Shown here: one piece after another, positions 1,926 through 8,156 of the stretch | Layout of the letters: every line of letters starts with the position of its first letter | Position numbering within the stretch: the stretch's first letter is position 1 | IMG/VR virus record: IMGVR_UViG_3300043399_000596 | DNA: 13,459 nucleotides | DNA from: a virus | Taxonomy: Duplodnaviria > Heunggongvirae > Uroviricota > Caudoviricetes | Direction: 5' to 3' (one strand) | Translations under genes and position numbers: made by a program | The notes under the pieces: generated by a model | What the model saw: only the letters and a program-made list of their open reading frames with translations | Database searches by the model: none | Told to the model about the DNA's origin: nothing

Positions 1926-3566
1926 ATGAAAATTCAGCAGTTATTCGAAGGTGCTTCTCCTAAGTTACCGGGTGCAGTAAAAGGCATCCAAGTTATGTCA
2001 CCTCAACAATTCGTTGCTAAGAGTCAAGAGGGCGAAGAACCTGGCTCGGACCAATCAGTAACAGAAGGCCCGGCTTTCGATAAGTGGGCAGATGATAGAG
2101 CAGCATCGCAACTATACAAACTCAAGAGTTTAAAGAGCTACCAGGTTGTTATCATGAACAACTACTATAGAGGGAAGTATCCTGACTATAGCGGTCGTTA
2201 CTACTATGTATTAGCCAGAAGCCCAGAAGAAGCCAAACAAGTTGTATTAGATAATGCAGATGCTATCCTACAAGATTTGCTTTCTATGAAGGCGCATAAC
2301 GGTAGAAAAATATTACCACGAAACAGTGCTGTTCGTATTACTGCTGACCGTATCGGTGATGTTAGAGACGGCACAGAACATGGTCGCATGAGCACAGCTG
2401 GATTCAAGCGTATGTTTGGTCCAGACGGCGTTATGATGGTTAAGTTAAGCAACGGCGCTGTTGCTGATGTCCAAGGTCAAGAGCAAGGTGTGGCGGAAGC
2501 AACCAAACTTCCTGCACAAACCCGTGAACTAAAGGGTAAAGAGTTAGAAGATTACTTAGACAGAATTCGTACTCAGTCAAAGACAAAAACTGACAAGTAC
2601 AAGATGCCATACATTCACCGTAGTTCTGTAATGGGCTACTACAACGAAGAAGGCAAGAAGTATGATGTTGATGCAATAAAGAATGCGTTAAAAGAAAGAC
2701 CTAAAAAACTTTTAAAGCAAAATGAAAAGATGAAGCACAGCAACGGAGAATTAGAACAGTTCTTTAACATTGGGTTTGCTGCTTTAACTGGCGTTGCATT
2801 AGACGAAAATACAAATGAAATTATTATCGTAAACACTTGTCCAGGTGCCGGAAGTTGTAAAGTCGATTGCTTTGCAATGAAAGGTGGAAAGATTCAATTC
2901 CAAGGTCCTTGGTTAAGTGATGGTAGAATTTTAACATATCTATTGAACGATCCTGAGGGATTTATGAGTCAGTTAAGTTCTGAAATTGCTAAAGAAGAAA
3001 AGAAAGGTGACAAAGGTGGTTACACTGTTACGATTCGTTGGCATGATGCCGGTGACTTCTTTAGCCCTGAGTATGTAGACTTGGCAATGAACTTAGCAAA
3101 AGCACACCCGGGTGTTATGTTCTATGCATATACTAAAATGGCTGATGTTGCTTTAGCAGAAAAGCCAGCTAACTTCATGATTAACTGGAGTGAAGGGGCT
3201 CATACTAGCCAAGAGAAGAAAGTAAAAGCGCAAGATCCTGAATTAGAAAAAACTAAAAACAGTCGAATTGTTCCATCAAGTCTATTCTATGACTTATTAG
3301 TTAAGGACGAAAAGAAAAACTTAGTTAAGGGTCCTGAAGGCCAATGGCAAGTGATACCTGACAAGTTACCTGAACTAAAACAAAGATTAGCTAAAGAGTA
3401 TGGAATTAGTCCAAGTAGTATTCTTAGTTATTCTGAGTGGGACAGCAAAACAAATGGTGGTAAAGTACAAACTCCAGTTAAGTACAATGTTATTATCACC
3501 CCAGGTGAACCTGATATCACTGCCAAGAGTGCAGGAGTACTAAGTACGTTATTATTAAAACACTAA
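1926..3566 (+). CDS. gp88-like protein (CxxxxxCxxxC, IRWHDAGDF, YAYTK) with N-terminal MKIQQLFE tag and an inserted module of about 144 aa
   Basis: Motifs NTCPGAGSCKVDCFAMKG, IRWHDAGDFFS and YAYTK match my recollection of the phage 'gene product 88' family; not searched. Confidence 0.65.
   Translation: MKIQQLFEGASPKLPGAVKGIQVMSPQQFVAKSQEGEEPGSDQSVTEGPAFDKWADDRAASQLYKLKSLKSYQVVIMNNYYRGKYPDYSGRYYYVLARSPEEAKQVVLDNADAILQDLLSMKAHNGRKILPRNSAVRITADRIGDVRDGTEHGRMSTAGFKRMFGPDGVMMVKLSNGAVADVQGQEQGVAEATKLPAQTRELKGKELEDYLDRIRTQSKTKTDKYKMPYIHRSSVMGYYNEEGKKYDVDAIKNALKERPKKLLKQNEKMKHSNGELEQFFNIGFAALTGVALDENTNEIIIVNTCPGAGSCKVDCFAMKGGKIQFQGPWLSDGRILTYLLNDPEGFMSQLSSEIAKEEKKGDKGGYTVTIRWHDAGDFFSPEYVDLAMNLAKAHPGVMFYAYTKMADVALAEKPANFMINWSEGAHTSQEKKVKAQDPELEKTKNSRIVPSSLFYDLLVKDEKKNLVKGPEGQWQVIPDKLPELKQRLAKEYGISPSSILSYSEWDSKTNGGKVQTPVKYNVIITPGEPDITAKSAGVLSTLLLKH
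2482..2499 (+). repeat. 18-bp direct repeat copy 2 (AGCAAGGTGTGGCGGAAG, encodes QGVAE)
   Basis: Exact match to 110-127. Confidence 0.9.
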
Positions 3567-3569
3567 ATA
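3564..3569 (+). promoter_or_regulatory. Putative T4-like late promoter core TAAATA
   Basis: TAAATA overlaps the upstream stop and ends 5 nt before the Dps ATG (3575); no Shine-Dalgarno present. Confidence 0.55.
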
Positions 3570-3574
3570 AAGCT

Positions 3575-4015
3575 ATGTTAACCGATAACTTAAAAATATT
3601 ATTAGCCAGCACTCAGAGTTTTGCAATCAAAAGTCAAAACTTTCACTGGAATGTTGAGGGAAGTAATTTCCCTCAATATCATGCCTTCTTTGATACGTTG
3701 TATGGTGATGTAGCAGACACGATTGATAAGATTGCTGAGTATATCAGAATATTAGGTCACTATACACCAGGTAGCTTATCCCGATACTCAGAATTATCTA
3801 TTATTCAAGACCAAACAAAGATTCCACGTGCTGAGTTGATGTTTGTAGAAACACTACAAGATTGTACAAAGATGATAGAATTAGTTGCCACAATGTTTGA
3901 TGAGGCAACAGCGGATCGTCAACAAGGCATTGCTAATTACATGGCTGAATTGCAAGACTTATATGCAAAGAAAGCATGGTTCATTCGTAGCATTCTTAAC
4001 ACAAGCCGTGAATAA
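3575..4015 (+). CDS. dps: Dps / ferritin-like DNA-protection protein
   Basis: 146 aa with FHWNVEGSNFPQYHAFF and DKIAEYIRILG, the Dps ferroxidase-centre signature (HWNVxG..H; D..AE). Confidence 0.92.
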   Translation: MLTDNLKILLASTQSFAIKSQNFHWNVEGSNFPQYHAFFDTLYGDVADTIDKIAEYIRILGHYTPGSLSRYSELSIIQDQTKIPRAELMFVETLQDCTKMIELVATMFDEATADRQQGIANYMAELQDLYAKKAWFIRSILNTSRE

Positions 4016-4710
4016 TGAGAGCAAACGAATTTATTGCAGTAACTCAATTTAATGAGCAAGTAGTTGCTGAAATGCCATTGCCCGCTGACTGGGATCCTGC
4101 TCAATATGGTCGCGGCACAACATTCAAACAAAGATTAGCATACGCATTAGAAAGAGCAAAGAAACTAGGTACCGGTTCTAGTCGTGTCGCTACTACAATC
4201 GAATATCAGGGTCGTCCTACAGTGTTAAAGATTGCCAAGAATCAAAAAGGTCTGGCACAGAATAGTGTTGAAGCAGATATTCTTAGTGATGGATACGCAA
4301 GTCAGTTAGGTATATTAATTCCTATCATTGATTATGATGAACAGAATCGTGAACCTACTTGGGTTCATACTGAACTAGCACAAAAAGTAAACGAAAAGCA
4401 ACTATGCAACACGATGAAGTGTGAGAGTTTAAACTTTTTAGTAAACGCAGCGCAAGCCATTACAGGTAGAAAAAAGTTTATGGGTCCGTTTCAGGGTTAT
4501 ATTGATAGAATGAGAGAAGCAGGAAAATCAGACCAAGACATTGATACCTTCACTGAATATGCTAATGTGCTAGCAGATTTAAATTCTCAGTTTGATGTGG
4601 AGTTAGGTGATTTTCGCAGACCTGCAAACTGGGGATTATATAACGGCAAGCCTATCATCGTTGATGTTGGCTTCAACAGTAATGTTTTAACTCAGTATTA
4701 TAAAAAATGA
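4015..4710 (+). CDS. Protein kinase-like fold protein with MRANEF N-terminal tag
   Basis: Gly-rich loop LGTGSSRVA, beta3 Lys (VLKIAK), alphaC Glu (QNSVE), catalytic-loop-like GDFRRPANWG and DFG-like IVDVG occur in the correct order. TAATG overlap with dps. Confidence 0.7.
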   Translation: MRANEFIAVTQFNEQVVAEMPLPADWDPAQYGRGTTFKQRLAYALERAKKLGTGSSRVATTIEYQGRPTVLKIAKNQKGLAQNSVEADILSDGYASQLGILIPIIDYDEQNREPTWVHTELAQKVNEKQLCNTMKCESLNFLVNAAQAITGRKKFMGPFQGYIDRMREAGKSDQDIDTFTEYANVLADLNSQFDVELGDFRRPANWGLYNGKPIIVDVGFNSNVLTQYYKK

Positions 4711-5168
4711 GAGCTACCGAATTTTTAGCAGAACTATTCAAGCCAGGTAAAAACTGGGAATGGGCCTTTCGTGGTAGTGAAGAAGCGATGGCTACTTTTA
4801 CCGTAGGTGATGTTGATTATTTGTGGTATGCTTACACATATTTGAAGCACAACCCTACTAAATGGGAAATCATATTCCGTGTCAAGCGTGACGATGACCA
4901 CGAAGGTAAAAAAGACTTGTTCGGTAAAACGGGTACAGGTAATTCAGCAGAAGTTATGTCTACCGTAGTGGATATCACAAGAAACTTCTTAGAAGAATAC
5001 GGTAACAAAGTTTTAGAAATCACATTTTCGTCTAAAGGTGATTCACGCACCGGGTTGTATGCAAAAATGGCCAAGCGTTTATTACCTAACTGGGATATGA
5101 AAACTAGAGAAGGTGTTAATGGAACTGATTTCTTATTAATAAACCCCAAAGCATACGAGATTAAATAA
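4707..5168 (+). CDS. Hypothetical phage protein with MRATEFLAE N-terminal tag
   Basis: 153-aa ORF with ATGA overlap. The C-terminal SRTGLYAKMAKR motif is of a type I recall in large-phage hypotheticals; function unknown. Confidence 0.8.
   Translation: MRATEFLAELFKPGKNWEWAFRGSEEAMATFTVGDVDYLWYAYTYLKHNPTKWEIIFRVKRDDDHEGKKDLFGKTGTGNSAEVMSTVVDITRNFLEEYGNKVLEITFSSKGDSRTGLYAKMAKRLLPNWDMKTREGVNGTDFLLINPKAYEIK
5162..5167 (+). promoter_or_regulatory. Putative late promoter core TAAATA
   Basis: Ends 4 nt before ATG 5172; no Shine-Dalgarno. Confidence 0.55.
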
Positions 5169-5171
5169 CAT

Positions 5172-5246
5172 ATGAATGAATATCCAGTATTTCCAGAACA
5201 AGAAGGTGAGTGGGATAGACCCGTAAATCCTTATAGCCCTGTATGA
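5172..5246 (+). CDS. 24-aa micro-ORF (MNEYPVFPEQEGEWDRPVNPYSPV)
   Basis: Not in the ORF track. Preceded by TAAATA-4nt-ATG; its TGA overlaps the desaturase ATG (ATGA at 5243-5246); fills the intergenic gap exactly. Confidence 0.7.
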   Translation: MNEYPVFPEQEGEWDRPVNPYSPV

Positions 5247-5959
5247 TAGCATTAATTTATACTCTAATAGTAACACACATTACTATCATATGTGTGACTG
5301 TTTTCCTACACAGAGGACAAGCACACAAAGGATTAATTTTCAATCCTATACTAAGTCACTTTATGCGTTTTTGGCTATGGCTAACGACAGGCATGGTTAC
5401 CAAGCAATGGGTAGCCATACACAGAAAACATCACAAAGACTGTGACACTCCAGGAGATCCTCATAGTCCGTTAATTTACGGATTAAAACGTGTATTGTTC
5501 GGTGGTGCATTCTTGTATCACATTGCCAGCAAAGACACAAAAATGATTGAAAACTTCGGAGTGGGGACACCTGATGATTGGATAGAAAAACATGTTTATA
5601 GTAAGCATTCCAGACTAGGTATAGGTTTGATGCTATTGATTAACATAATCTTGTTTGGTCCTATAGGATTATTAATTTGGGGTATTCAAATGATATGGAT
5701 TCCGTTCTGGGCTGCAGGTGTTGTCAATGGAATAGGACATTGGTGGGGCTACCGAAACGGTGTCACCAAAGATAATAGTCGCAATATTAGCCCCCTTGGT
5801 ATCATTATCGGTGGAGAAGAACTCCATAATAATCATCATTTAGACCCTGCAAGTCCTAGGCTAAGCAAGCGCTGGTTTGAACTAGATATGGGTTGGATTT
5901 ATATTCAATTGTTCAAAATTCTTGGACTGTTGAAATTACGAAACACACTACCTTCGTAA
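5243..5959 (+). CDS. Membrane fatty acid (acyl-CoA/acyl-lipid, delta-9 type) desaturase
   Basis: Three His boxes (HRGQAH, HRKHH, HNNHH), hydrophobic transmembrane segments and the C-terminal WFELDMGW motif. Confidence 0.92.
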   Translation: MIALIYTLIVTHITIICVTVFLHRGQAHKGLIFNPILSHFMRFWLWLTTGMVTKQWVAIHRKHHKDCDTPGDPHSPLIYGLKRVLFGGAFLYHIASKDTKMIENFGVGTPDDWIEKHVYSKHSRLGIGLMLLINIILFGPIGLLIWGIQMIWIPFWAAGVVNGIGHWWGYRNGVTKDNSRNISPLGIIIGGEELHNNHHLDPASPRLSKRWFELDMGWIYIQLFKILGLLKLRNTLPS

Positions 5960-5968
5960 GATAGTGTG
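5944..5968 (+). other. Stem-loop CACACTA-(11 nt)-TAGTGTG spanning the desaturase stop codon
   Basis: Perfect 7-bp inverted repeat (5944-5950 / 5962-5968) with an inner CTT/AAG pairing; no U-tract follows. Confidence 0.5.
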
Positions 5969-5974
5969 ACAGGC

Positions 5975-5981
5975 ATAAATA
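5975..5981 (+). promoter_or_regulatory. Putative late promoter core ATAAATA
   Basis: Ends 4 nt before ATG 5986 of the endonuclease. Confidence 0.6.
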
Positions 5982-5985
5982 CTAC

Positions 5986-6591
5986 ATGTATTACATTTAT
6001 GCTTATATTGACCCTAGAAATGGTGCACCGTTTTACGTGGGTAAAGGAAAAAATAATCGCAAATCCGACCACCTCAGGGAGCACTTAGGAAAAACGGATA
6101 ATGCAGATAAAGTAAGGATTATCCAAGAACTTGCAGAACTAGGGTTGTTACCTACAATAGTTGAGTTAGAAAATAATATAGCTGATGAAAACTTAGCGTA
6201 CAACCGAGAAACATATTTTATACTGAAATACGGTAGAATGGGATTTGAAGAAGGTGGAATTCTAACTAACAAGGCACTGCATGGTCATCCACCTAAGCCT
6301 ATATGGGATAATGCTCGGAAAAAGCAACACAGCGAATGGAATAAAAAATACTGGACACCCGAACGAATTAAAGAACACAAAGAAAAGAATTTAGTCCCCC
6401 TGACGGAAATCGGCAGAAACAAAATTAGAGATAGCAGTTTAGGTACAGTTTCTGTAGTAGATATAAATGGTAATGGCATGCGAATATCAAAAGAAGTGTA
6501 CGCTGAGGTGGATAGGTCTGGTCCGATAAATACACATATGTATGTTTCAGTTTCATCATCGGAAGCTAAACGTAGAAGAAACACACCTTAG
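5986..6591 (+). CDS. GIY-YIG (LEM-3/Seg-like) free-standing putative homing endonuclease
   Basis: N-terminal YYIYAYIDPRNGAPFYVGKGKNNR (GIY-YIG hairpin plus conserved Arg), downstream catalytic Glu (AYNRE) and LTN motif; basic C-terminal DNA-binding tail. Confidence 0.85.
   Translation: MYYIYAYIDPRNGAPFYVGKGKNNRKSDHLREHLGKTDNADKVRIIQELAELGLLPTIVELENNIADENLAYNRETYFILKYGRMGFEEGGILTNKALHGHPPKPIWDNARKKQHSEWNKKYWTPERIKEHKEKNLVPLTEIGRNKIRDSSLGTVSVVDINGNGMRISKEVYAEVDRSGPINTHMYVSVSSSEAKRRRNTP
6526..6532 (+). promoter_or_regulatory. Putative internal late promoter ATAAATA within the endonuclease 3' end
   Basis: ATAAATA-CACAT-ATG has the same geometry as the gene-start boxes and lies about 50 nt upstream of the structured element. 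Confidence 0.35.
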
Positions 6592-6675
6592 GACCGGTAT
6601 TAAGTTACCGTAGTGTGAGCCGGCTGCTGGCTTTAGGAGTAACGATTCGCTACCGTGAAACTATAAAGTGAGCTT
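6580..6675 (+). ncRNA. Candidate structured non-coding RNA (unclassified)
   Basis: GC-richer intergenic island with nested helices: CACAC 6582-6586/GTGTG 6613-6617, CGGTA 6595-6599/TACCG 6606-6610, AGCC 6618-6621/GGCT 6629-6632 or GCTTTA 6630-6635/TAAAGT 6664-6669, and GTAACG/CGCTAC 6639-6653. No covariation data available. Confidence 0.5.
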
Positions 6676-6687
6676 TTGCCATTTCTG

Positions 6688-6694
6688 ATAAATA
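6688..6694 (+). promoter_or_regulatory. Putative late promoter core ATAAATA
   Basis: Ends 5 nt before ATG 6700. Confidence 0.6.
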
Positions 6695-6699
6695 TTAAT

Positions 6700-7497
6700 A
6701 TGAGAGCATCAGAATTAGAAGAATCCGCGGTTGATGAGTTAAAGCGTAAACTCCCTAGTCTTAATAAAACAGACTATGACACCATTGACCATCTAATGCG
6801 CCGAATAAGTAAGCGACACCATATTACCGGTAAAAAGTTACATGACATGTTTGTCGCAAAATACAAGCATACTCCGGATCATTGGATTAAGAAATATAAA
6901 GAAAAACTCAAAGAAACTGACAAAGTAGAGGAAGGTAATCCTAATTTAATGGTAAATCCTAATCCAGCTAAGGTGTATATAGTATACGGAAATGGTAAAC
7001 CAGTTGTCAAGTTTTCTAATCCAAAAGACGCAGATTCAGCAGCACGAAGTCTTAGAAGTAAATTTAGGGATATCACTTACACTATAGTTACAAAAGATGA
7101 ACACGGTAGGGTGTTTGAAGATTCCTTAAAGCCTGAAGACGAAAATGATAGAATAAAACACTTTATTAACTGGGCTTACAAAATTGTAAACCTACAGAAA
7201 CCATATCCTAAATTTACATTTAGTGCAGATACTGAAGAAGCACAGCAAGGGAGCCATACTGGAAGACACTCTCACGACGGTACAAGAGGTGAGATATGGG
7301 TATATACTGCTAATCGTAATCTAATTGACATTCTACGTACGGTGTTTCATGAAATTGTACATGAAAAACAAATGCAGCTAGACATGATAAAACCGGGTGA
7401 TAGTTATCCCGGAAGCCCGATCGAAGTTATGGCAGACATGCTAGCTGGAAAGTATATAAAAATATACGGCAAAAAGCATCCTGAGATATTCCAATGA
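6700..7497 (+). CDS. Multi-module protein with C-terminal HExxH zinc-metallopeptidase-like domain; MRASELEE tag
   Basis: Start moved from TTG 6676 to ATG 6700 (late box plus MRAxE tag). The C-terminus carries NRNLIDILRTVFHEIVHEKQ and a downstream SPIEVMAD, a possible third Glu ligand. Confidence 0.7.
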   Translation: MRASELEESAVDELKRKLPSLNKTDYDTIDHLMRRISKRHHITGKKLHDMFVAKYKHTPDHWIKKYKEKLKETDKVEEGNPNLMVNPNPAKVYIVYGNGKPVVKFSNPKDADSAARSLRSKFRDITYTIVTKDEHGRVFEDSLKPEDENDRIKHFINWAYKIVNLQKPYPKFTFSADTEEAQQGSHTGRHSHDGTRGEIWVYTANRNLIDILRTVFHEIVHEKQMQLDMIKPGDSYPGSPIEVMADMLAGKYIKIYGKKHPEIFQ

Positions 7498-8156
7498 GAT
7501 TTTCTGAATTTGCTACTGAGGATTTAAGCCGTCGAGGCTTTTTACGAGGTGCAGCTGCCGCAGCAGGTGCAGCTGCCGCAGGATACCAACTAACAAAAAA
7601 CACAACTCCTCCCACCGAAAATCCCCCACCAGTTCAAAAACAGTTTATACCGTTAAGCAGCAACCCTAGCTTAGAAACTTTTTTGTTTAATCAAGCTAAG
7701 GCTGCAGGTTTAAAAGGTCTTGAGTTAGCGCAGTTCATGGCGCAAACAATGCACGAGACCTGGAACTTTACTAAACTAAAAGAAAAGCCAATGGGACCTA
7801 AGTATTTTGCTAAAAAATATGATCCCAAATACGCACCCAAGACAGCTAAAATTATAGGAAATACTAGAATAGGTGATGGCGAGAAGTTTCACGGTAGAGG
7901 ATTTATTCAATTAACTGGTAGAGAAAATTATGCACGTGCTAGTAAGTCATTAGGAATTGATTTACTCAATAATCCTGAACTAGCAGCAGATCCAAAAGTA
8001 GCATCACAAATTGCTACATGGTATTGGAACACAAGAGTTAAACCCAATGTTAGTGATTTTGCTGATACTCGCCAAGTTACTCGACAAATTAATCCTGCGC
8101 TTCATGGTTTAGAGCGTAGACATAATAAATTTTTAAAGTACGAAAAAGTTGTATGA
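7494..8156 (+). CDS. Glycoside hydrolase family 19 (chitinase-like lysozyme) with MRFSEFATE tag and a twin-arginine-like segment
   Basis: GH19 motifs AQFMAQTMHET, GDGEKFHGRGFIQLTGRENY, LLNNPELAA, ATWYW and TRQIN. Confidence 0.9.
   Translation: MRFSEFATEDLSRRGFLRGAAAAAGAAAAGYQLTKNTTPPTENPPPVQKQFIPLSSNPSLETFLFNQAKAAGLKGLELAQFMAQTMHETWNFTKLKEKPMGPKYFAKKYDPKYAPKTAKIIGNTRIGDGEKFHGRGFIQLTGRENYARASKSLGIDLLNNPELAADPKVASQIATWYWNTRVKPNVSDFADTRQVTRQINPALHGLERRHNKFLKYEKVV
7547..7581 (+). repeat. Tandem duplication AGGTGCAGCTGCCGCAG x2 (period 18) encoding the Gly/Ala run
   Basis: 7547-7563 is identical to 7565-7581. Confidence 0.85.

Follow-up and report, generated by a model that had tools for sequence, protein, structure and literature searches.

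Introduction

Recognition of one RNA by the loops of another is well established for the kissing antisense RNAs, such as OxyS, which makes two loop contacts with fhlA, and CopA, which pairs with CopT, and for group II introns, where the loops carrying exon-binding sites 2 and 1 (EBS2/EBS1) read the intron-binding sites (IBS2-IBS1). Viral mRNA elements complementary to 18S ribosomal RNA (rRNA) are known as well, and include motif 1 of the calicivirus termination upstream ribosome-binding site (TURBS) and the 3' translation element of the barley yellow dwarf virus (BYDV) type. Among phages, T4 encodes in its tRNA cluster two low-copy small stable RNAs of unknown function, rnaC and rnaD (species 1 and 2), and T4-type phages contain promoter-early stem-loop (PeSL) cassettes, which are simple hairpins present many times per genome. 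Here we describe an RNA element at positions 6578-6674 (+ strand) of a 13,459-nucleotide stretch of DNA, referred to in what follows as the window, from the Caudoviricetes record IMGVR_UViG_3300043399_000596 of IMG/VR. We consider it very probable that this element is one copy of a conserved, phage-specific and uncatalogued family of structured RNAs. Two of its conserved loops are complementary to abutting segments of 23S rRNA, and the single most likely mechanism, which we put forward tentatively, would be that of a two-loop antisense RNA acting on the H69-H71 (helix 69 to helix 71) region of the host 23S rRNA.

Evidence for a conserved RNA family

The initial annotation of the window had proposed an unclassified structured RNA in the 108-nt gap that separates the stop codon of a homing-endonuclease gene (TAG, 6589-6591) from the next ATG (6700), and had described this region as richer in GC than its flanks, as is indeed the case (0.47 at 6550-6649 versus ∼0.35-0.40). 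The proposal of an RNA unlike any tRNA, known ribozyme or riboswitch has been borne out. ARAGORN finds neither tRNA nor transfer-messenger RNA in the window, the Rfam 15 covariance models give no match in the whole window at the gathering threshold and nothing relevant at E ≤ 10 in 6450-6800, and no Rfam 15 match is obtained in 12 diverse family loci (96.8 kb). The search for homologues and covariation suggested in that annotation has, in turn, yielded at least ∼150 homologues and strong covariation in two separate sets of loci.

Homologous elements lie 5' of orthologues of the gene that begins at 6700 in other viral contigs and also 3' of homologues of the endonuclease. A search pattern comprising two conserved blocks matched at least 120 IMG/VR contigs, and a second pattern, built on different blocks, matched at least 120 stretches, many of them on contigs recovered with the first, with 30 new loci among the matches listed. 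The family includes at least ∼150 IMG/VR contigs of large uncultured phages together with one cultured Pseudomonas phage, PA5oct. Covariance model R1 was constructed from 19 short forms using a structure set by hand and identifies a single copy, no more and no less, in every one of 86 loci; model R2, constructed from the R1 matches, identifies 67 copies among 97 further sources which, except for the window and one other locus (L012), were unused in building either model. The window itself is matched over 6574-6674 with scores of 51.6 bits (R1) and 71.0 bits (R2).

No cellular copies were found among the matches listed in a pattern scan of 185,579 species genomes: at least 120 stretches fit the pattern and all 80 of those listed failed the model, so that we regard them as chance matches. 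Megablast and blastn comparisons of the region with 50,697 phage records produced no matches or matches at chance level only, and the model found no copy in phages Phosso, Atu_ph07, XaC1 and RaK2, a search whose sensitivity is limited by the first-look filter.

In both locus sets the alignments are model-fitted and counts of pairs are biased toward the structure; with this proviso 81.0% of the cells are paired in the first set (59.0% after shuffling) and 81.4% in the second (56.8%), with covariation scores of 0.501 (0.177 shuffled) and 0.519 (0.161), respectively, that were reached by none of 500 shuffles in either case. We take the covariation signal to be real because the scores drop to 0.02-0.11 (first set) and 0.02-0.085 (second set) when partners are slid by 1-3 columns and because compensatory changes are visible by eye. 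Further, G.U pairs (179) outnumber A.C pairs (66), which argues that the + strand RNA is the selected molecule. A two-site DNA-binding element, offered in the initial annotation as an alternative, is unlikely in light of these numbers, of helices that are kept by compensatory changes and of a G.U pair that is invariant in one of them. From the window sequence alone the case for an RNA would be weak: single-sequence folding of the region is no better than for shuffled sequence (z = -0.5, both strands), and the consensus fold of the window copy (-18.0 kcal/mol) lies above the minimum free energy structure (-24.0 kcal/mol), which has a different, non-conserved 3' half.

Architecture of the element

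As delineated by the covariance-model match and by the aligned homologous copies, the element on the + strand extends from a 5' flank, GAAAC, to a conserved tail (6578-6674). Helix P1 (6582-6617), formed by CACAC (6582-6586) and GUGUG (6613-6617), encloses loop L1 and hairpin P1a. It is supported by covariation, with ∼78% of cells paired, every pair varying on both sides and compensatory variants such as ACUCG/CGAGU, AUUUGG/CCAGAU and CACUA/UAGUG. The loop or junction L1, CCUUAGGAC (6586-6594), is near-invariant and holds the TAG stop of the upstream gene; where L1 was left out of the search pattern its variants differ by single bases only. P1a (6595-6610; CGGUA, loop UUAAGU, UACCG) is an optional hairpin that covaries (CGCA/UGCG, CGUAAC/GUUACG, CCGUUA/UAACGG) and is missing in about a quarter of the members, giving short forms of 79-84 nt.

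The GC hairpin P2 (6618-6632; AGCCGG, loop CUG, CUGGCU), with core CGGCUGCUG, has six pairs including the invariant G.U. Between 98.5 and 100% of its cells are paired and its three outer pairs covary as GC/CG/AU, with compensatory variants such as AGCC/GGCU, GGCC/GGCC, GCGC/GCGC and GCCC/GGGC. In helix P3 (6634-6663) an outer stem of variable length, here UAG (6634-6636) with CUA (6661-6663), is followed by three inner pairs, ACG (6642-6644) with CGU (6654-6656), that show strong covariation (84% of cells paired in the second locus set, with GC, CG, AU and UA types). P3 is capped by the 9-nt loop L2, AUUCGCUAC (6645-6653), and the element closes with the conserved 3' tail AAGUGAGC (6666-6673). 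A subfamily of 104-123 nt (L271, L277, L294, L295, L300, L307, L311 and L312) contains, 3' of L1, one or two additional hairpins and has no evident P1. RNAalifold applied to a raw MAFFT alignment recovers P2 alone, owing to register differences in P1 and P3 that the hand-seeded covariance model overcame.

The initial annotation had organized the region differently, around a TTAGGA-N12-TACCGT motif repeated with 45-nt spacing and around mutually exclusive pairings, as would befit a riboswitch-like RNA. The repeat is exact, at 6588-6611 and 6633-6656, and a bipartite 6+N+6 repeat of the kind found in the window arises in just 7 of 20,000 shuffles. Two of the proposed pairings, CGGTA (6595-6599) with TACCG (6606-6610), which is P1a, and AGCC (6618-6621) with GGCT (6629-6632), are upheld as well, and alternative partners can be drawn. 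However, just two of the 119 family members have the repeat, namely the window and L007, which is its closest relative, and comparison does not support it as an organizing feature; in each repeat unit one half is a conserved block, L1 or the end of L2, and the other half a lineage-specific stem. Nor do the alternative helices, on which a switch would depend, have covariation support. The second partner proposed for CGGTA is not conservable, P1a, one arm of such a switch, being missing in about a quarter of members as noted above, and the proposed GTAACG/CGCTAC hairpin clashes with the comparative structure, where CGCUAC is a loop. With the element located 3' of a gene and not in a 5' leader, a switch built on the 45-nt repeat is the least probable of the explanations that we have considered.

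Complementarity to ribosomal RNA

Using E. coli rrnH as the test sequence, we find that positions 6585-6596 (L1 and its neighbours) form an exact 12-nt complement of 23S 1920-1931, that 6646-6654 (L2) form an exact 9-nt complement of 23S 1929-1937 and that 6621-6631 (P2) form an exact 11-nt complement of 16S 517-527. The two best matches are equalled in 12 of 5,000 dinucleotide shuffles, and controls in the sense orientation or with reversed rRNA do not exceed 9 nt. It is on the conserved blocks that the matches fall, and on 23S the L1 and L2 sites abut, at the base of H69 and the sequence just after it. Both the L1 and the P2 match occur in 119 of 119 members, but these two motifs belonged to the pattern by which the members were selected; for L2, to which no such selection applied, 84 of the 119 retain a complement of 8 nt or more.

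Additional rRNAs, from Marinomonas, Arcticibacter, Aureicoccus and Streptomyces, were included in the comparison. The L1 12-mer complement holds for Marinomonas and for two Bacteroidota rRNAs, and L1 together with the type-1 L2 matches the rRNA of Gammaproteobacteria, Bacteroidota and Actinomycetota. Two variants of L2, ACGCCAUUC and AUUACGCCA, are complementary to 23S 1968-1976 and 1971-1979, respectively; they share the core ACGCCA and extend the 23S complement in opposite directions. The element has one hallmark of a kissing-loop antisense RNA, namely unpaired loops complementary to a defined target, with L1 and L2 residing in covariation-supported loops that are exact complements of 23S. 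Sequences complementary to L1 or L2 were not found in the source contig. The tail, AAGUGAGC, has a 7-8 nt match to 23S 1099-1105 that is insignificant by itself.

In the mechanism that we favor the RNA would derive from the upstream transcript, of which it would form the 3' part, and would act in trans, in a kissing-type interaction involving two loops. These would seed pairing with the 23S segment when it is unfolded, as in nascent or immature 50S particles, or exposed on free 50S, and the pairing would interfere with or redirect the maturation or use of host ribosomes. Partners of the loops that are present in cis (the tail for L2, CCUAAGG for L1 and GGCGU for a variant L2, see below) would mask them until displaced by the target. 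Antisense pairing to 23S is preferred because it would explain the conservation of the loops across phages from very different habitats, because variant loops still fall in the same 23S neighbourhood and because the matches are longer than any of the cis partners. In its broader form, a phage RNA acting in trans on conserved host rRNA (23S 1920-1937, 1968-1979 and perhaps the 16S 530 loop) so that the maturation or function of ribosomes is disabled, stalled or turned to another purpose, the idea is a possible one that we hold with considerable reserve.

The cis partners are at the heart of a second explanation, in which the element is a self-contained pseudoknotted RNA, either a 3'-untranslated-region (3'-UTR) or intercistronic element active in cis (in protection or processing of transcript ends, or in insulation) or a binding site for a phage or host protein, with the rRNA complementarity as a by-product. 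In the window the tail can pair with L2 (UUCGCU/AGUGAG), a possible pseudoknot. The tail AAGUGAGC is kept across all L2 types of the main family, but was required by the selection patterns. In L012 it differs (AAAACGACC) and fits that locus's own type-2 L2 by virtue of three compensatory changes. The L2 of the subfamily described above, UACGCCAG, is matched by GGCGU directly 5' of P2, likely forming a pseudoknot, and L037 and L086 carry CCUAAGG in cis, opposite L1. Pairing of L1 with the latter motif is in keeping with a self-contained RNA; it also shows that L1 acts by pairing and that its partner is of 23S sequence. The element is always placed shortly behind a stop codon, with the next promoter or terminator beyond it, as expected for a cis function, and the existence of an L2 type without an rRNA match is in line with such a function as well. 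On the other hand, with one or two copies per genome of ∼300-350 kb it is no general stabilizer or terminator, the cis partners span 4-6 nt as compared with adjacent 23S matches of 9-13 nt, the PA5oct copy retains L1 and L2 yet has no tail, and no conserved neighbour gene that could encode a protein partner is seen across the compared loci. The cis partners could be pseudoknots that account for the conservation of the loops or could equally be weak internal mimics of the real target, two possibilities that sequence alone does not separate. A self-contained RNA is nearly as likely as the antisense mechanism and, like it, falls short of being probable.

Several additional observations weigh against antisense pairing to 23S. 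The type-2 L2, AGUCGUGCC, found in about a fifth of members, has no convincing rRNA complement, and the same is true of the type-4 and L009-type loops, in each case for the E. coli, Marinomonas, Arcticibacter, Aureicoccus and Streptomyces rRNAs; for these loops the background of a scan tolerant of G.U pairs was too high to be informative. In many members P1 or P1a takes up the outer bases of the L1 match and 7-9 nt stay free, and in the L1 variant CCCUAGG a C.A mismatch would be placed in the middle of the 23S duplex, with the self-complementary CCUAGG kept. As to P2, its complement lies inside a stem and, taken alone, has a chance probability of ∼0.02. The target region of 23S is folded in mature ribosomes. 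The cis partners of L2, the tail and GGCGU, could account for its conservation with no trans target at all, and the apparent invariance of L1, P2 and the tail derives in part from their having been required by the selection patterns. Finally, four non-coding RNAs are reported for PA5oct by RNA-seq, none at the locus of the element (Lood et al. 2020, PMC7318152).

Genomic setting

The window lies at the end of an 83.7-kb IMG/VR viral contig for which CheckV gives a completeness of 23%, and the source phage is therefore large. Its family-B DNA polymerase shares 43-50% identity with the enzymes of Phosso, Atu_ph07 and the RaK2-like jumbo phages. Whole phage records carry one or two copies of the element: two in a 352,754-bp genome that is complete and has terminal repeats, and one in each of the other large records and in the source contig. 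The canonical copy of the 352,754-bp genome lies 5' of a terminase-like gene and a diverged copy is found near the DNA polymerase gene (G001:C1:76939-77016, equivalent to L141 4940-5017). The latter has retained P2, L2 (GUCGCUAC) and the tail, with L1 decayed to CCUUAAAC and partly paired. The single PA5oct copy (MK797984, 115463-115561; 30 bits with R1, 38 bits with R2) is unannotated, is positioned between two hypothetical genes and has an intrinsic terminator directly after it.

Among copies with long flanks 69 of 72 have the same orientation as the flanking genes. The upstream ORF (open reading frame) ends no more than 18 nt from L1, or at the UAG inside it, in 41 of 71 cases, and the next ORF starts from 0 to ∼80 nt or more after the tail, downstream genes being variable. 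A TAAATA box or a TTGACA/TATACT promoter often follows directly 3' of the element. In the window the next gene (ATG 6700, extending to 7497, + strand, a late gene of no assigned function) has its own TAAATA box (6689-6694), outside the RNA and 11 nt before the ATG, and the element is not the 5' UTR of this gene, an option that the initial annotation had held to be less likely. Boxes of this type lie 10-11 nt 5' of the ATG of three genes, starting at 3575, 5986 and 6700 (boxes within 3564-3577, 5976-5988 and 6689-6702), none of which has a Shine-Dalgarno sequence. If these are promoters of the T4 late type, transcription would start at or beside the AUG and produce leaderless late mRNAs. A motif at the start of the 6700 gene, GATAAATA..ATATG (6684-6702), recurs inside the endonuclease ORF at its 3' end (6522-6540), where it is in frame at Met185, and could be an internal late promoter ∼40 nt 5' of the RNA element. 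Several genes (in the window those at 6700-7497 and 4707-5168, and others in L140 and L141) encode N-termini of the MRA.EF/MRAxEL type, and the element is often 5' of such genes.

The proximity of stop codons to L1, the absence of a Shine-Dalgarno sequence from the next gene of the window and the complementarity of the loops to rRNA raise the prospect of an mRNA element that, in analogy to the calicivirus TURBS, tethers the terminating ribosome through rRNA pairing for restart on the next gene. Against this, a full sigma-70-type promoter with a Shine-Dalgarno sequence, or else a terminator (L122, PA5oct), comes after many of the copies, the next start is at a distance that ranges from 0 to more than 80 nt with downstream genes that differ, and the main complement is to 23S and not to 16S rRNA. 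We consider such a tether improbable.

All genes flanking the element are on the + strand. A conserved 24-codon ORF, MNEYPVFPEQEGEWDRPVNPYSPV (5172-5246), has a stop that overlaps with the start codon (ATG) of the gene after it; the ORF is found immediately 5' of the element, or of a remnant of it, in L007, L008, L010 and others, and the ORF and the element may form one unit. The gene that follows in the window (5243-5959) encodes a fatty-acid-desaturase-like membrane protein (PF00487, E = 5e-15) and ends in a P1-like hairpin, and next is the GIY-YIG homing-endonuclease gene (5986-6591; Pfam PF22945, E = 1.8e-8). In L007 and L008 the 24-codon ORF is immediately 5' of the element, and by comparison with them the window has gained these two genes at this site. 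Downstream of the 6700 gene is an endolysin of glycoside hydrolase family 19 (GH19; chitinase class I fold) at 7494-8156, + strand, with an N-terminus that is similar, at a level below the Pfam cut-off, to a twin-arginine signal.

The endonuclease gene abuts the element in a particular manner. The 5' strand of P1 and the start of L1 are made up of its last codons (N T P stop), and the TAG of CCUUAGG is also where the homologous genes of L010, L011 and L012 end. Before the gene, at 5940-5968 (+ strand), there is a degenerate duplicate of the 5' part of the element (GAAACACACUACCUU, a short loop and UAGUGUG; repeat family D3), followed by the TAAATA box of the gene (5976-5981, + strand). The layout is alike in the window, L010, L011 and L012, with a degenerate (G)AACAC..UACCUU joined by a short loop to its complementary strand, then a TAAATA box and then the GIY-YIG gene, the end of which rebuilds the 5' strand of P1 and the UAG of L1. 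We infer from this that the endonuclease lineage inserts at the CCUU/AGG edge and leaves the RNA intact, as would be expected if the RNA gene is conserved and important.

These same features could be taken to mean that the element operates as DNA, either as a homing site or recombination boundary of mobile cassettes, much like PeSLs, or as a two-site protein-binding sequence. An endonuclease at the same edge in four phages with duplication of the P1 5' strand, the gain by the window of two genes between the small ORF and the element, and the nearly palindromic nature of CCTTAGG are all compatible with this notion. It does not explain why four helices stay paired through compensatory changes despite drift, with an invariant G.U in P2 and more G.U than A.C pairs, an outcome that argues for selection on the + strand transcript, nor does the one- or two-fold occurrence of the element resemble the many PeSLs per genome. 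Homing endonucleases target conserved genes, and the presence of one here fits an important RNA gene and does not replace the RNA explanation; a DNA-level element is quite improbable.

Relation to known systems

A number of other RNA classes were considered. No terminator-like site is present in 5800-6900, and the terminator of PA5oct is separate from the element. Guide RNAs of the H/ACA or C/D type were rejected, as Rfam snoRNA matches are at chance level only (13-15 bits, elsewhere in the region) and the order of L1 and L2 is the same as that of their targets, opposite to that of a pseudouridylation pocket. A captured antisense fragment of rDNA was likewise rejected, the order of blocks being permuted relative to 23S, and a tRNA-like fold, mimicry of an anticodon loop by P2, a nut/boxB-like site and a group I intron remnant were dropped.

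A description of this RNA family was not found in the literature searched and, as far as can be told, it is new, although the 8,495 unnamed candidate structures of an IMG/VR catalogue (DNAVirus_X set, PMC10690425) may include it. The family is widespread, occurring on at least ∼150 IMG/VR contigs and in PA5oct, is strongly constrained and is not part of Rfam 15, and its conserved loops resemble universal rRNA probes. If pairing with rRNA does take place it would be, as far as we have found, the first described anti-rRNA riboregulator in bacteria or bacterial viruses, independent of host range because its target is invariant, and would provide a new viral route to the ribosome as well as a natural model on which antisense agents against rRNA could be based. 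Should the loops be devoted only to an internal pseudoknot or to a protein, this is still a new class of RNA, and its dedicated lineage of homing endonucleases implies that it matters to the phage. PA5oct is cultured and genetically tractable, making the question directly testable.

Comparison with the systems introduced above places the element apart from each. Like PeSL cassettes it may consist of a stem-loop followed by a promoter at a boundary where, in the window, genes have been inserted. It differs from them in having multiple helices (four) with conserved loops, in its occurrence once or twice per genome or record and in the presence of an adjacent promoter in some loci only, and assignment as a PeSL was rejected on these grounds. 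With T4 rnaC and rnaD, compared here by description only, it shares the status of a low-copy small RNA of a phage; the T4 RNAs differ in that they are located in a tRNA cluster. The TURBS and BYDV-type elements are, similarly, structured viral RNAs, located near a stop codon or within a 3' region, that have a conserved segment with complementarity to rRNA, but they are eukaryotic and directed at 18S, whereas the phage element is bacterial, is directed mainly at 23S and often has a promoter or terminator between it and the next gene.

The closest parallels are with RNAs that read their targets through loops. OxyS and CopA are, as the element is predicted to be, small structured RNAs with complementarity in conserved loops and, for OxyS-fhlA, two loops on one target; their targets are an mRNA and a plasmid RNA, as opposed to the rRNA presumed here for an element of lytic large phages that is probably derived from a 3' UTR. 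A group II intron was rejected, the element being only 80-120 nt in length, with no Rfam group II match and no reverse-transcriptase gene nearby. Though it has neither the intron core nor domain V, reverse transcriptase or exon context, and the relation is one of analogy and not of membership, two loops that follow one another 5' to 3' and whose adjacent targets are arranged in the same order are common to EBS2/EBS1 and to L1 and L2 as they would be positioned on 23S 1920-1937.

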